Below, piece by piece: positions 6,658 to 45,213 of a stretch of 64,000 nt of DNA. The translations under genes were made by a program, and so were the position numbers. The notes under the pieces are model-generated. The model made no database searches, was not told where the DNA came from, and was given only the letters and a program-made list of their open reading frames with translations. Every line of letters begins with the position of its first letter. The stretch's first letter is position 1. The stretch is from Stellaceae bacterium (GTDB taxonomy: Bacteria; Pseudomonadota; Alphaproteobacteria; ATCC43930; CGMCC-115725), in the NCBI GenBank assembly GCA_035533255.1, contig DATLUE010000028.1:59-64058 (forward strand). Reading direction: 5' to 3'.

Positions 6658-6683
<26 letters not shown>

Positions 6684-7500
6684 CGACACGGGCGAGCGCG
6701 CAGAATTGCTCGACCGATAGGGTTTCGGCGCGGGCGGTCGGCTCGACGCCGGCGGCCGCGAGCAGCGCTGCGGTGTCGCCGCCGAGCGATTTGAGGCTCT
6801 GGCGCAGCATCTTGCGGCGCTGGCCGAAGGCGGCAGCGGTGACGCGCTCGAGCGCCGCCTGGTCGCAAGGCGCGAGCGGCGCGGCACGCGGGATCAGATG
6901 CACCAATGTCGAAGTCACTTTCGGCGCCGGAACGAAAGCCTGCGGCGGCACGTCGAAGGCCAGACGCACGTCGCACAGCCACTGCGCCAGCACCGAGAGC
7001 CGCCCATAGGCGTCGCTGCCGGGCGCGGCGGCCAGGCGCTCGGCGACTTCCTTTTGGAACATCAGCGTCATGCTCTCGTAAGCGCGCGCATCGCCGAGCC
7101 AGCGGATCAGCAGCGGCGTCGCGATGTTGTAGGGCAGGTTGGCGACGATCTTGCGCGGCGCGGCGACCAGGCGCGCGGGATCGACGCCGAGCGCGTCGCC
7201 CTCGACGATCGTCAGTCGGCCGGGAAAAGCCGCGTCGAGCTCGCGCAGCGCGGCAATGCAGCGCGGGTCGCGCTCGATCGCCGTCACATGCTTGGCCCCT
7301 TCAAGCAGCAGCGCGCGCGTCAGCCCGCCGGGGCCCGGGCCGATCTCGATGATATTCGCCGCGTCGAGCGGCGCTGCCGCGCGCGCAATGCGCCGCGTCA
7401 GGTTGAGGTCGAGCAGGAAATTCTGCCCGAGCGATTTGCGCGCCCCGAGCTCGAAGCGCCGAATAACCTCGCGAAGCGGCGGAAGCTCAGGCGCCGACAG
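6658..7500 (-). CDS. rsmA: 16S rRNA (adenine1518/1519-N6)-dimethyltransferase RsmA/KsgA; start assigned to a CTG
   Basis: Motifs [34 protein letters not shown] and FGQRRKML. The first two lie upstream of the first canonical start (GTG 7285-7287). The frame is open up to the stop at 7552-7554. The start is placed at in-frame CTG 7498-7500, where orthologues begin (inference). Confidence 0.85.
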
Positions 7501-8497
7501 GTTCGGCGACCCGGCGCTCGACGAGCTCGCCGGCCAGGGCGAGCGCGGCGATCAGGCTGGCGGGATTGGCGATGCCTTGGCCGGCGATGTCGCACGCCGT
7601 GCCGTGGTCCGGCGAGGTGCGCACGAACGGCAGGCCCAGCGTGATATTCACGCCGCGATCGAAGTCGATCGTCTTCAGCGGGATCAGCGCCTGGTCGTGA
7701 TACATGCAGATCGCCGCGTCGTAGCGCGTGCGCGCGGCTGCGTGAAAAAGCGTGTCCGCCGGCGCCGGCCCGCTGACCTCGATCCCGAGATCGCGCAATG
7801 CCTCAACTGCCGGTACGATGATGTCGATCTCCTCGCGGCCGATGGTGCCGTTCTCGCCGGCATGCGGGTTGAGACCGGCGACCGCCAATCGCGGCCGGGC
7901 GATGCCGAAATCGCGCTGCAAGGCCGCCGCCGTGATCCGTCCTGCGGTGACGATGTCCGCGGTGCGAAGCTGCGCGATCGCTTCCGCCAGCGGGCGGTGG
8001 ATCGTCACCGGCACGACCCGCAGTCCCGGGCCGGCGAGCATCATCACCGGCGTCACATTCCCGGCGAGCTCGGCGAGATATTCGGTGTGGCCGGGGTGGC
8101 GGAAGCCGGCCGCGTAAAGCGTCTCTTTCTGGATCGGGTTGGTGACGATCGCCGCCGCGCGGCCCTGCTGGACGAATGCAACCGCGGCGGCGATCGCGCC
8201 GATCACGGCCGGCGCATTGGCCGGGTCCGGCTTGCCCGGCACGACCGGCGCCGGCAGCGCGATCGGCAACACCGGCAGGGCGTCGCGGAAGATCGCGGCC
8301 GCTTCTTCGAGAGCCGCGATGGCGCGGATCGGCACGTCGAGGCGCAGCATCGCGGCAAGCCGCGCCAGCCGCTCGGGCCCATCGAGGACGAAGAACGGCG
8401 GCAGGCCGTTCGCGCGCCGCGCGGTCCAGGCTTTCAGCGTGATCTCGCCGCCAATTCCTGCCGGCTCGCCGATGGTCACGACAAGCGGAGCGGTCAT
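7487..8497 (-). CDS. pdxA: 4-hydroxythreonine-4-phosphate dehydrogenase
   Basis: 336 aa from [16 protein letters not shown]. Contains [16 protein letters not shown] and RTSPDHGTA motifs. Its ATG overlaps the surA stop (ATGA at 8494-8497). Confidence 0.93.
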
Positions 8498-15959: not shown

Positions 15960-17836
15960 TGCCCGCGCTCGCGCTGCTTGTGCCGTCGTGGCTCGATCTC
16001 GCCGGCTGGGCGGGCGTGATCTTGGCGAGCCTTGCCATGATCGGTGTCGGTCGTCTGGCGACCGGTGGGCGCGCGACGCCCGAAGCCGCGCTCATCGCCG
16101 GCTGGGGCGGCTGCGTGCTGGTGCTGACGGCGTGGGGGATCGCCACCGCGGCCAGCTTGCGCGTGCCGGGGCTCGCCCTGATGGCGCTCGGCCTCGTCGC
16201 GCAGCTTTGGCCGCGGCTGCGTCTCGGCGGTCGCGATTGGCGCGCGCTCGGCCGGGTCGCGGCGCTTGCCTTGCCGCTACTCGCGATCATGGCGAGCGCG
16301 CGGCCAAGCCTGCCCGATACCTGGCTCAACCTCCTGCCCAACGCGGCCTATCTCTACGATCACGGATTCTTCCCGGCCGATGCGCGGCCGCCGGCCTATT
16401 CCTTCATCGCCGGCGCGCCCTACAATATGCAGCTCGCAAGCTTGATGGCCGGGCTGGTGCTGCCCAATTTCCCGGCCAGCGCGATGATCGATTTCAACCT
16501 CGTGCTCCAGCTCGCCGCGGGCCTGCTGCTGGCGCGGCTCGCGACCGGCGATGACGCGGCCGCGCCGGGCTGGGCGATCGCCGCGCTCGGCATCCTGCTT
16601 GCGACCGCGCTCAACCCGGGCTTCGATCCGCGCTATCACCTCTCCGCCTATAGCGAGGCGTCGGTAACGGTCGCTCTGGCGTTCGCTGGATGGCACGCGG
16701 CGCGCGCGCTCGATCGCGCCGGCGGCGGCCGCGATGCCCAGCTCGATTTCCGGCTGCTGGCCCTGACGCTCGCGGCGCTCGTCAACATCAAGCAGGAAAG
16801 CGTCGCACTCGCGCTTGGCGTCGTCGTATCGGCCTGCGTGCTCGCGCTCTTGGCGCGGGCGCGGCGACGCGAGGCCGCGCTCGGCATCGCGCTCGCGACG
16901 CTGCCGGCGGTGGTGCTTTATCTCGGCTGGCGCTGGTACGTGCTCGAGCATTTCGCGCTCGGCGAGCTCAAGGACCTGCCCTTCGCGCAATGGCATATCC
17001 TCGAGCTGCCGCAGATCATTCTCAACATGTTGCGCGCGGCCGGCGGCAAGATATTGTTCTTCGCGATCCTGCTGGCGGCGCTTGCGGCGGCGTCATGGCG
17101 GCTGCTGCGGCGCGAGCTCGATCTGGCGACGCGGCTCGCCGCCATGCTGCTGGGCACCGCGATCGTCTACAACGCCGCGCTGATCGCAGCCTATGTCGCC
17201 CATTTCGAGGGCGGCATGGGCATCGAGGCGCATTCCTATTTTCGTTACAGCACGCATCTCGGGCTGCTGCTGATGGCGGCGCTCGTGCTGCTGGCGCGCG
17301 ACTGGCGCTGGTCGGATTTCGGCGGGCGCTGGCGGCGTGCGGTTCCGGCGGTTCTCGTGCTGCTGATCTTGCTCGTCCCGTTGCCGTTCCTGCGCATGCT
17401 GCGCTTCGATCTCGAGCCCCCGAATTTGCGCGCGTTCCAGCTCGCGCACGAGGCGGCGCTGCGTATCGGCGGGGCGACGCACCTCCTGCTCATCCTGCCG
17501 GGCGACAACGGCACCGTGCCGCCGACGCTCGAGGGCGTGTTGCGATATTTGCCGCCGCGTCATCCCGCGATCGAGTTCGGGGTCGCGACCGACGTTGCGG
17601 CCGGGCTTGCGATGCCGGGCTATGCGCGCGCACTGCTGTCATGCGTGCCGCCAGGCTTCGATACGGTTCCTGCCGGCGACGCGGCGCTGCTGCAGCGGGT
17701 CGGCGAGGCTTGGCAGGCCGAAGCGATCTGGCCCTACGATCCGCCTCCCGCGCAGGCACGCTGGTCGCATGTGCTCGCGCTGGCGCCGTTGTGCTTGACG
17801 CCGACCGATACCAAAGCGCGCGCCCCCGCCGGTTGA
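15959..17836 (+). CDS. polytopic inner-membrane protein, function unknown (possibly GT-C-like)
   Basis: 625 aa with many predicted TM helices and then a soluble C-terminal region. Translationally coupled to the preceding ORF. Confidence 0.7.
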   Translation: MPALALLVPSWLDLAGWAGVILASLAMIGVGRLATGGRATPEAALIAGWGGCVLVLTAWGIATAASLRVPGLALMALGLVAQLWPRLRLGGRDWRALGRVAALALPLLAIMASARPSLPDTWLNLLPNAAYLYDHGFFPADARPPAYSFIAGAPYNMQLASLMAGLVLPNFPASAMIDFNLVLQLAAGLLLARLATGDDAAAPGWAIAALGILLATALNPGFDPRYHLSAYSEASVTVALAFAGWHAARALDRAGGGRDAQLDFRLLALTLAALVNIKQESVALALGVVVSACVLALLARARRREAALGIALATLPAVVLYLGWRWYVLEHFALGELKDLPFAQWHILELPQIILNMLRAAGGKILFFAILLAALAAASWRLLRRELDLATRLAAMLLGTAIVYNAALIAAYVAHFEGGMGIEAHSYFRYSTHLGLLLMAALVLLARDWRWSDFGGRWRRAVPAVLVLLILLVPLPFLRMLRFDLEPPNLRAFQLAHEAALRIGGATHLLLILPGDNGTVPPTLEGVLRYLPPRHPAIEFGVATDVAAGLAMPGYARALLSCVPPGFDTVPAGDAALLQRVGEAWQAEAIWPYDPPPAQARWSHVLALAPLCLTPTDTKARAPAG

Positions 17837-17895: not shown

Positions 17896-19389
17896 ATGAA
17901 GATCAGCTTCGCTGCGCCGCGCATGCCGCGCTCGGGCACGGTGGTCTGCGCGGCGATGGAAGGACGCAAGCTTTCGCCCGCCGGCTTGCAGATCGACAAA
18001 GACAGCGGCGGCGCGCTGCGCCGCGCGATGGAAGCCAGCCGCTTCACCGGCAAGAGCGACGAGACCTTGATGGTTCTGGCGCCGGCCAATCTCGATGTTT
18101 CGCGCGTGCTGCTGGTCGGCGTCGGCACGCCGCGCGCCGGCGAGCGCAGCGTGCGCCAAAATCGCGGCGGCATCGTGCTGGCGGCGCTCAACGCCGCGGG
18201 CGAGCAGAACGCCGCGTTCTTCGTCAACGCGTTCAAAGGCAAAGATACCGCGTTGGCCGCGGCCGATCTCGCTTATGGCGCGCGTCTGCGCTCCTATCGC
18301 TTCGACAAATACCGCACCAAGGAAAAGCCCGAGCACAAGCCGTCGCTGAAGGAGCTGACCTTCCTGGTCGACGGCCCCAAAGCGGCGGAGCGCGAATTCG
18401 AGCCGCTGGAGAAGATCGCCGAGGCGGTGTTCTTCACCCGCGATCTGGTCTCCGAGCCGGCCAACGTCATCTATCCGGAAACCCTGGCGCAAGAGGCGAA
18501 GAAGCTCGCCAGCCTCGGCGTCGAGGTCGAGGTGCTCGACGAGAAGCAGATGAAGACGCTCGGCATGAACATGCTTCTGGGCGTCGCCCAGGGCAGCGCG
18601 CGGCCGGCGCGGCTGGTCGTGATGCAATGGAAGGGGAATCCGCGCGCGCGCAACAAGGCGCCGGTCGCGTTCCTCGGCAAGGGCGTGACCTTCGATACCG
18701 GCGGCATCTCGATCAAGGGCGCCGCCGGCATGGAAGACATGAAGTGGGACATGGGCGGCGCCGGCGTCGTGATCGGCCTGATGAAGGCGCTGGCCGGACG
18801 CAAGGCGCGCGTCAACGCGGTCGGCATCTGCGGCTGCGTCGAGAACATGCCCTCGGGCACGGCGCAGCGGCCGGGCGACATCGTCAAATCGATGTCGGGC
18901 CAGACGGTCGAGGTGATCAACACCGACGCCGAAGGCCGGCTCGTGCTGGGCGATGCGCTGTGGTACTGCCAAGACCGCTTCAAGCCGCAATTCATGATCA
19001 ATCTCGCGACCCTGACCGGCGCGATCATCGTCGCCCTCGGCCACGAGCAGGCCGGCATCTTCTCGAACAACGACCAGCTTGCCGATCGCCTGATCGCGGC
19101 CGGCAAATCGGTCGACGAGAAGCTGTGGCGCATGCCGCTCGGCGACGGCTATGACCGGATGATCGACAGCGACGCGGCCGACATGAAAAACATCGGCGGC
19201 CGCGACGCCGGCTCGATCACCGCGGCGCAATTTCTGCAGCGCTTCGTCAATGGCCTGCCCTGGGCGCATCTCGACATCGCCGGCACGACCTGGTCGAAGA
19301 AAGACGCGCCGACCGTGCCGAAAGGCGCCACCGCCTTCGGCGTGCGGCTGCTCGACCGCTTCGTCGCCGATCATTGCGAAGGCAAATAG
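17896..19389 (+). CDS. pepA: leucyl aminopeptidase
   Basis: 497 aa from MKISFAAP inside track ORF 16690-19389. M17 motifs VGKGVTFDTGG, NTDAEGRL and HLDIAG. Confidence 0.95.
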   Translation: MKISFAAPRMPRSGTVVCAAMEGRKLSPAGLQIDKDSGGALRRAMEASRFTGKSDETLMVLAPANLDVSRVLLVGVGTPRAGERSVRQNRGGIVLAALNAAGEQNAAFFVNAFKGKDTALAAADLAYGARLRSYRFDKYRTKEKPEHKPSLKELTFLVDGPKAAEREFEPLEKIAEAVFFTRDLVSEPANVIYPETLAQEAKKLASLGVEVEVLDEKQMKTLGMNMLLGVAQGSARPARLVVMQWKGNPRARNKAPVAFLGKGVTFDTGGISIKGAAGMEDMKWDMGGAGVVIGLMKALAGRKARVNAVGICGCVENMPSGTAQRPGDIVKSMSGQTVEVINTDAEGRLVLGDALWYCQDRFKPQFMINLATLTGAIIVALGHEQAGIFSNNDQLADRLIAAGKSVDEKLWRMPLGDGYDRMIDSDAADMKNIGGRDAGSITAAQFLQRFVNGLPWAHLDIAGTTWSKKDAPTVPKGATAFGVRLLDRFVADHCEGK

Positions 19390-19402
19390 GAGGGACCTGA
19401 GG

Positions 19403-19891
19403 CTGGCCGAGATCGGCTTCTACCATTTGAAGGTGACGCCGCTCGAGCGTGCGTTGCCGCGGCTCTTGGAGCGGGCGCTGAAGGACGGCTATCGCATCCA
19501 GATCGTCGCCGGCTCGAGCGAGCGGGTCGAGCATCTGAACCAGCTCCTCTGGACCTATGAGGAGGCGAGCTTCCTGCCGCATGGCAGCGCCCGCGACGGC
19601 AATGCCGAGCGTCAGCCAATCTTTCTGACCGCGGACGAGGGCAATCCCAATGCCGCGACCATGCTGGTCCTGGTGGATGGCGCGCGCGTCACGGCGCTGG
19701 AGGAGTACCGGCGCGTCTGCGACATGTTCGACGGCAATGACGAGACCGCGGTCGAGGATGCCCGGCGGCGCTGGCGCGAAGCCAAGCTTGCCGGCCACAC
19801 CCTGACCTATTGGGAGCAGACCGGCGCCGGCTGGGTGAAGCGCGCCGCGGACTCGGATTCCAGCGGGCCGGATTCCAGCGGGGCCGGTTGA
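19403..19891 (+). CDS. holC: DNA polymerase III chi subunit; start assigned to a CTG
   Basis: ..EIGFYHLKVTPLERALPRLLERAL..LLWTYEEASFLPHG matches the chi N-terminus, and the gene follows pepA as usual. AGGAGG at 19388-19393 lies 9 nt before CTG 19403. The only canonical upstream start (ATG 19250) would overlap pepA by 140 nt. Confidence 0.78.
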   Translation: MAEIGFYHLKVTPLERALPRLLERALKDGYRIQIVAGSSERVEHLNQLLWTYEEASFLPHGSARDGNAERQPIFLTADEGNPNAATMLVLVDGARVTALEEYRRVCDMFDGNDETAVEDARRRWREAKLAGHTLTYWEQTGAGWVKRAADSDSSGPDSSGAG

Positions 19892-43869: not shown

Positions 43870-44151
43870 GTACGTTTCCCCCATTGGTTTTGTTATCGCG
43901 ATAATGGCGCCGGCGGCCTAGCCGCCGAGGCAAGCGCAAAGCCGGGCCGGTCTTGCGGCGCGGGCCGTCCCGATCCCGGCGTTTCCTTGCCGGCGAGCAG
44001 ACACCGCGCCTGCCATCGCGTCAAGAGGCGGGACCCCTGCTGCGGTTCGCCGCGCGCGTTGCCTTGACAAGGCGTTGCACCTCAACAAGGATCGCCGCTG
44101 GTAAAACCGGCAGCGCATCGGCGTGAGGCGCAAGCCCGAGGGGAGGTTCGA

Positions 44152-45213
44152 CTGCGCCCGATCCACAGCCTATTTGCCGGCCTGCTGGCCGTCCTCTTGC
44201 TCTTGGTCGTTTTCGGGCTTGCGGCGCCCGCGACGGCCCAGCCGCTGACCCATGTCGTCATCGCGACCGTGCCGACTATCGCCTCGACCTCGACCTACAT
44301 CGCCGACGCCAAGGGCTATCTGCGCGACGCCGGCATCGATGCCGAAATCCAGAACATCGATTCGGTCAGCACGGCGATGCCGCTTCTGGCGAGCGGCCGC
44401 ATTCAGGTGGCCCAAGGCGGACTCGCCGCGTCGTATTGGAACGGGGTGGCGCAGGGTCTGCCGGTGATCATGGCGTTCGAGGGCGGCTCGACGCCGCTCA
44501 ACCACCATATCCTGCTGGGGCTCGGTGCGAAGGACAAGATCAAGGCGATCGCCGATCTCAAGGGCCATGCGGTCGCGCTCAACGCGCCGGGCTCGATCAT
44601 CGGCTACGATCTCTACAAGGTGCTCGGCAGCGCCGGCCTGACCTTCAACGACGTCGACATCAAATACATCTCGTTCCCGCAAATGGGCATCGCCCTCCAG
44701 AACGGCGCGGTCGATGCCGCGGTGGACGTGCCGCCGTTCGGCGACCTGATCATCGCGAAGGGGCTCGGCGTCAATTGGATCAACACCGACGACTATCTGA
44801 AGCCGGCGCCGGTCACGGTCGTTCATTACGTCATCAATTCCGATTGGGCGAAGGCGAATAGCGATCTCGCGCATCGCCTGTTCGTCGCGATCGGCCGCGG
44901 CACGCGCGATTATTGCCAAGCCTATCATCACGGCCCCAACCGCGACGAGGTGATCGCGATCATGCTTAAATACGGCGTCGCCGGCACTCACGATTCGCTC
45001 GACAAATTCCCGTGGCAGGCGCGCGATCCCAATGGGCGCTTCAACATGGCGAGCCTCTTGGACGTGCAGGATTGGTATTTCAAGGACGGCTTTATCAAGC
45101 AGAAGCTGACGCCCCGGCAGCTCGTCGATCCGAGCTATGCCGATGCGGCGGCGAAAGCGCTCGGACCGTTCGCGGTAACGAACACGGCGAGCACGCTGCG
45201 CGGTTGCCGCTAA
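44152..45213 (+). CDS. ABC substrate-binding protein (NitT/TauT, NMT1-like); start assigned to a CTG
   Basis: The track ORF starts at TTG 44197 in the middle of a hydrophobic core. The frame is open from 44068 with no ATG/GTG/TTG before 44197. GGGAGG (44141-44146) lies 5 nt before CTG 44152. That start gives a complete signal peptide (M)RPIHSLFAGLLAVLLLLVVFGLAAPATA. Confidence 0.75.
   Translation: MRPIHSLFAGLLAVLLLLVVFGLAAPATAQPLTHVVIATVPTIASTSTYIADAKGYLRDAGIDAEIQNIDSVSTAMPLLASGRIQVAQGGLAASYWNGVAQGLPVIMAFEGGSTPLNHHILLGLGAKDKIKAIADLKGHAVALNAPGSIIGYDLYKVLGSAGLTFNDVDIKYISFPQMGIALQNGAVDAAVDVPPFGDLIIAKGLGVNWINTDDYLKPAPVTVVHYVINSDWAKANSDLAHRLFVAIGRGTRDYCQAYHHGPNRDEVIAIMLKYGVAGTHDSLDKFPWQARDPNGRFNMASLLDVQDWYFKDGFIKQKLTPRQLVDPSYADAAAKALGPFAVTNTASTLRGCR

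Follow-up and report, generated by a model that had tools for sequence, protein, structure and literature searches.

How a gene for RsmA (KsgA), the dimethyltransferase of 16S rRNA, can be translated when the region encoding its N-terminus contains no ATG, GTG or TTG is the question raised by the surA-pdxA-rsmA locus of an uncultured soil alphaproteobacterium. In the window, that is, the whole stretch of 64,000 nucleotides that was analysed, rsmA lies on the minus strand, and its frame is bounded upstream by an in-frame TGA (7552..7554). The earlier note had reported that no canonical start occurs between this stop and a GTG at 7285..7287; this holds at every coordinate, and none of the 88 codons between TGA 7554-7552 and GTG 7287-7285 is ATG, GTG or TTG. 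From that GTG, the open reading frame (6658..7287, minus strand) encodes 209 amino acids, whereas from the proposed start, a CTG at 7498..7500, the coding sequence (6658..7500, minus strand) encodes 280 amino acids followed by a stop, and is identified as rsmA/ksgA by its translation, the Pfam RrnaAD domain and matches to RsmA/KsgA structures in the PDB.

The coding region from CTG 7500-7498 through position 7288 (71 codons) accounts for one quarter of the RrnaAD domain. It contains the S-adenosylmethionine (SAM)-binding motif, as had been claimed from the sequence alone. The protein starting at the CTG matches the Pfam profile PF00398 (RrnaAD) with an E-value of 7.6e-58 and 196 bits (cut-off 24) over positions 4-259 of 263, whereas the product starting at the GTG covers only positions 56-259 and lacks the SAM-binding motif. 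The glycine-rich motif I, which lies upstream of GTG 7287, aligns with the same motif in the RsmA structure 4jxj of the PDB. The description of this N-terminus as universally conserved was too broad: the LPPLREV segment is alphaproteobacterial, and in the comparison of the PDB matches the N-terminus of Escherichia coli KsgA aligns at approximately residue 10 of the CTG-start protein. The locus shares the full RrnaAD domain, the SAM-binding motif and the gene order with the surA-pdxA-ksgA operon that encodes the 16S rRNA (adenine1518/1519-N6) dimethyltransferase RsmA/KsgA; the start codon is the sole difference, and the methyltransferase activity of the protein considered here is predicted.

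The upstream gene, pdxA (7487..8497, minus strand), is recognized as an open reading frame and in public gene calls, where it encodes a PF04166 protein of 336 amino acids ending at TGA 7489-7487. Counted from the first base of the CTG, this stop (7487..7489) follows after 11 nt, which confirms the spacing given in the earlier note, and the two genes overlap by 14 nt.

The public annotations of rsmA differ. The ENA and JGI calls begin at GTG 7287, and the same truncated RsmA of 209 amino acids is called on JGI contigs; a lookup of the JGI form of this product returned no contig. The exact protein of 280 amino acids (M-SAPELPPL...) is present in NCBI nr for this contig, so the NCBI annotation already uses CTG 7500-7498. 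It also takes the CTG start of tlyA and the ATC start of infC, but not the CTG or ATH forms of three other genes discussed below, namely, holC, an ABC-type substrate-binding protein and an oxidoreductase. This existing annotation is one of three points that the earlier note missed, the others being the upstream GTG of the relatives, destroyed here, and the restriction of such starts to a handful of genes.

Because ATG, GTG and TTG together account for 6.1% of the in-frame codons of this genome, a run of 88 codons free of all three has a probability of about 0.004. For the whole assembly, a metagenome bin of 4.34 Mb in 439 contigs with 65% G+C, we constructed a gene finder based on codon usage. 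In the whole-assembly scan for coding signal upstream of the first canonical start, rsmA ranked first among 3,219 genes, and two positive controls were recovered, infC with its near-cognate start and prfB with its +1 frameshift. Separately, two conserved genes outside the window, on contigs C150 and C99, carry in-frame stops that are possible nonsense alleles or consensus errors: an lptB-like ATPase has TAG at the Walker-A lysine codon (GPNGAG*NT), and a SufS-like aminotransferase has an internal TAA.

The genus comprises 18 species genomes (including OY969771.1), all from uncultured alphaproteobacteria, and the pdxA-rsmA junction was found in 17. In 14 of these 17, an in-frame GTG stands nine codons before LPPL(REV), that is, four codons upstream of the position of CTG 7500-7498. 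At this ancestral start position the genome analyzed here (G000) has GGG (7510..7512, minus strand), the result of a T to G change at base 7511; the genome G015 has GAG, and G010 has ACG followed two codons later by TTG. The two genomes that have neither GTG nor TTG, G000 and G015, both have CTG at codon -5, and are the only ones of the 17 to have it; in the other members of the genus this codon is CCG, CCA, GCG or CAG. Within the G000 frame, no codon other than CTG 7500-7498 differs from ATG by a single base in the interval from the upstream stop to LPPL. In the alignment with close relatives that the earlier note had proposed, the CTG codon is shared with G015, and most relatives start at the GTG four codons upstream.

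In a tree of the 3.2-kb region, G000 and G015 belong to different clades (support 94/100 and 91/99), so the loss of GTG and the gain of CTG occurred twice. The association between CTG and the lack of a canonical start is significant by Fisher's test (p = 0.007; 17 genomes, two events), with n=2 independent lineages behind it, so that a sign test corrected strictly for phylogeny is weak; in G015, the contig ends about 60 codons into rsmA. Among 78 other alphaproteobacterial rsmA loci, none was without a canonical start, and accordingly the start-less state is derived. Together with the absence of any other near-cognate codon before LPPL, the independent gain of CTG in G000 and G015 supports the proposal of near-cognate initiation at CTG 7500-7498.

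Other variation was noticed at this locus within the genus. Three related genomes (G016, G014 and G017) have a 15-nt insertion (…CCT[A/G]A[A/T]TTA…) at the pdxA-rsmA junction that shifts the stop of pdxA upstream by 15 nt and adds five residues to the N-terminus of RsmA. In G001 (L005), the rsmA frame is broken immediately ahead of the SAM motif (…AANIDRDRTRPRR…), by a frameshift or an assembly indel.

The codons at the start of rsmA are also read in the pdxA frame. The T to G change at 7511 that turned GTG into GGG in the rsmA frame is silent in the pdxA frame, where CGT became CGG (Arg). CGT makes up 4.8% of the CGN codons in this genome, and the ancestral CGT of the pdxA frame is kept in 14 genomes despite synonymous divergences of 0.5-1.0; the retention of this rare codon suggests that the GTG start of rsmA is under selection in the relatives. 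Likewise, CTG in the rsmA frame requires the proline codon CCT in the pdxA frame; CCT accounts for 2.8% of CCN codons, and the probability of two such codons by chance is about 0.0008. For the 67 codons that precede GTG 7287, dN/dS relative to the relatives is 0.05-0.16, and these codons are under purifying selection. For the whole of rsmA the values are 0.13-0.27 against relatives and 0.34 against the outgroup, equal to or lower than those between the relatives that keep GTG. The frame has neither a frameshift nor an internal stop, and selection is not relaxed, so the gene does not have the marks of a pseudogene.

We consider it probable that rsmA is a functional gene whose translation starts at the near-cognate codon CTG 7500-7498 and is coupled to that of pdxA. 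The ancestral GTG start was lost through the change at 7511, silent in the overlapping pdxA, and under this scenario the start would have moved four codons downstream to the CTG, yielding the 280-residue RsmA. Pairing of the initiator tRNA with CUG would be near-cognate, and initiation would depend on ribosomes that are translating or terminating on pdxA. No member of the genus has a Shine-Dalgarno (SD) sequence before the rsmA start (anti-SD duplex energies of -1.5 to -5.5 kcal/mol, and -3.7 kcal/mol before CTG 7500-7498), and in every member with the junction (17) the start falls within the last codons of pdxA; this combination points to translational coupling. It is from such comparisons of sequences that we infer both the use of CUG as the actual start codon and the coupling mechanism. 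In E. coli, CUG initiates very weakly, with reporter expression undetectable in one study (10.64898/2026.09.08.748864), and re-initiation in the absence of an SD is both weak and IF3-sensitive (PMC2268962).

Several other explanations of the locus can be weighed against this one. That GGG is a sequencing or consensus error for a true GTG is extremely improbable: although the genome is a bin of 439 contigs in which two conserved genes carry in-frame stops that may be errors, the junction is identical, GGG and CTG included, in the metagenome assemblies ERZ27256814 and ERZ27256801, which come from different ENA samples and whose contigs differ solely at one contig end, in yicC. The 209-residue call on JGI contigs speaks against an error as well, and an error would leave the accompanying change from CCG to CTG unexplained. 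The sequence error that the earlier note had entertained is therefore excluded as far as the assemblies show; exact-pattern scans of the genome and metagenome contigs, with N at two variable bases, found no same-species variants. Hardly more credible is the production of a PdxA-RsmA fusion by +1 ribosomal frameshifting near the pdxA stop. The rsmA frame is indeed +1 relative to pdxA and open across the junction, and the prfB frameshift found in the same genome scan indicates that the organism possesses the mechanism. We rejected this candidate because the junction has no slippery site of the CUU-UGA type; it reads GGC GCC TGA G, where GCC cannot re-pair in the +1 frame, and an SD-like stimulator is absent upstream of the pdxA stop. 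Furthermore, the relatives have a GTG start of their own, so a fusion would not be ancestral.

Two further alternatives are unlikely and, in our estimate, equally so. Translation could begin at another near-cognate codon, the best candidate being ATT 7468..7470 (minus strand), the isoleucine codon of REVIRR, where ribosomes re-initiating after termination on pdxA, 17 nt upstream, would produce an RsmA with a shorter N-terminus. ATH starts are used in the genus, in infC, in the oxidoreductase gene of 10 of the 17 genomes and in tlyA of some genomes; moreover, the product would be nearly as long at its N-terminus as E. coli KsgA, and since KsgA begins at about residue 10, a slightly shortened protein could still fold. 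The codon is ATH in every relative because the isoleucine is conserved. Against this start stand the LPPLREV segment, which is conserved across alphaproteobacterial RsmA and intact in this genome, and the rare CCT/CTG that arose in both lineages lacking GTG and would be left without explanation; the GAGG before ATT is only 2 nt away, too near to function as an SD. Alternatively, rsmA might be silenced or strongly down-regulated, as the first step of gene decay or as an adaptive reduction, with the CTG being incidental. Such an outcome would be compatible with the poor performance of CUG as an initiator and the lack of an SD; rsmA is dispensable in E. coli, though its loss is costly, and loss of RsmA methylation raises resistance to kasugamycin (10.64898/2026.09.08.748864). 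The intact frame and a dN/dS as low as or below that of the GTG-keeping relatives, a measure blind to very recent loss, argue against silencing, and so does the parallel gain of CTG in the second GTG-less lineage. Initiation at CTG 7500-7498 accordingly remains the reading that we favor.

CTG starts are used elsewhere in the genus. The earlier note had pointed to two other genes of the window with the same pattern, and both proved to have real, conserved CTG starts. The holC gene starts at CTG 19403-19405 (region 19385-19405, plus strand), after the TAG stop of pepA and an AGGAGG; at this position (x-E-I-G-F-Y-H-L) CTG is found in 13 of 17 genomes of the genus, TTG in two and GTG in two, and in other genera of the family the codon is ATG, GTG or TTG, with CTG in one genome. 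The gene for an ABC-type substrate-binding protein starts at CTG 44152 (region 44141-44154, plus strand), preceded by GGGAGG. Its promoter (TTGACAAG...), the GGGAGG and the CTG are conserved in 13 of 14 genomes of the genus, whereas the signal-peptide codons diverge; in three relatives an additional ATG follows three codons later.

Outside the window, on the plus strand of contig C116, tlyA, which encodes an rRNA 2'-O-methyltransferase and follows dxs, has a CTG start at about base 17005. In six genomes of the genus, including G000, tlyA has no canonical start and instead offers CTG, ATC or both 1-10 nt past the dxs stop; in another clade it has an SD and GTG. A quinone-oxidoreductase-like gene (MKAIVIREFG...) lies on the minus strand of contig C180, again beyond the window, and its start follows GGAGG. 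Across the 17 genomes this start is ATC in six, ATT in three, ATA in one and ATG in seven; the gene is metabolic, and its start resembles the ATH type of infC. The start of infC itself is ATC in this genome and ATA in relatives. Two genes on contigs C369 and C315, likewise outside the window, have relatives that are too distant or absent for comparison: a kdsB-like gene has a possible CTG start 7 nt after GGAG, and a vapC-like PIN gene lacks ATG, GTG and TTG ahead of its conserved N-terminus, LLDTNILI.

In a genome-wide count around the 5' edges of coding regions, SD sequences preceding in-frame CTG codons showed no excess over those preceding control codons at any threshold; therefore, the phenomenon concerns a handful of genes rather than hundreds. 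By rough extrapolation, near-cognate starts would be found in about 0.2-0.5% of the genes. Thus, the suggestion that such starts may be a property of the genome holds in that other genes have CTG or ATH starts, but not in the sense of a bulk shift. The tRNA-Leu(CAG) is ordinary, and pattern searches across the genus for an initiator-type anticodon stem-loop with a CAG anticodon, in a set where this bin itself is without tRNA-fMet, returned non-tRNA matches only.

The closest parallel comes from Deinococcus deserti, where N-terminal proteomics has proven non-canonical starts for dnaA (ATC), rpsL (CTG), Deide_03051 (CTG) and infC (PMC2830850). As in that bacterium, housekeeping genes are among those affected: their conserved N-termini are encoded before the first ATG, GTG or TTG, and gene finders truncate the products; the CTG and ATC starts of D. 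deserti are conserved among its relatives, and its near-cognate cases make up a share of the genes similar to the rough estimate for this genus (PMC2830850). In contrast to the peptide-proven starts of D. deserti, the CTG start of rsmA is proposed from comparison; and whereas the CTG of rpsL is phylum-wide, that of rsmA is recent, being present in 2 of 17 species as a replacement for a lost GTG.

Near-cognate initiation on a gene of the translation machinery is also known from E. coli infC, which encodes IF3 and has an AUU/AUH start with autoregulation, according to Sacerdot et al. 1996 as cited in PMC2268962. That start, which senses IF3 levels, is of ancient origin and has been conserved, whereas any regulatory role of the rsmA CTG is hypothetical. 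A third point of comparison is the gene pairs that undergo termination-reinitiation, in which the downstream start lies a few nt from the upstream stop and has no SD of its own (PMC10666635, PMC2268962). The rsmA CTG, 11 nt upstream of the pdxA TGA on the same strand, has the position expected for coupling; the studied cases use AUG, GUG or UUG (PMC10666635, PMC2268962), whereas here the codon would be CUG within a 14-nt overlap, with a putative dependence on pdxA. The rsmA case is a further example of a known, rare start type that is missed by standard gene finders.

A more speculative proposal, built on the analogy with the AUU of infC and IF3, is that the weak CUG and AUH starts of rsmA and tlyA act as a sensor of the methylation of the ribosome pool in a feedback circuit; we regard this as quite doubtful. 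The two genes are the top two without a canonical start in the genome-wide scan, and the product of each is a methyltransferase acting on rRNA in or close to the decoding center. The wider context is the lack of a canonical tlyA start in six genomes of the genus and the CTG or ATH starts of holC, the ABC-type binding protein and the oxidoreductase. Loss of RsmA has been reported to alter initiation at non-canonical codons (10.64898/2026.09.08.748864), and CUG and AUH starts could therefore respond to the methylation state of the ribosomes.

For annotation, the consequence is that Prodigal-type calls, such as those of ENA and JGI, report a 209-residue RsmA without its SAM-binding site, which could be misread as a defective gene and mistaken for a predictor of kasugamycin resistance. 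For the evolution of overlapping genes, the locus presents a case of start-codon turnover in which a substitution without effect on the protein of the upstream gene destroys the start of the downstream gene and a nearby CTG appears to replace it, twice independently. With holC, tlyA, the ABC-type binding protein and the oxidoreductase, this uncultured alphaproteobacterial genus joins the lineages that use non-canonical initiation, for a handful of genes.
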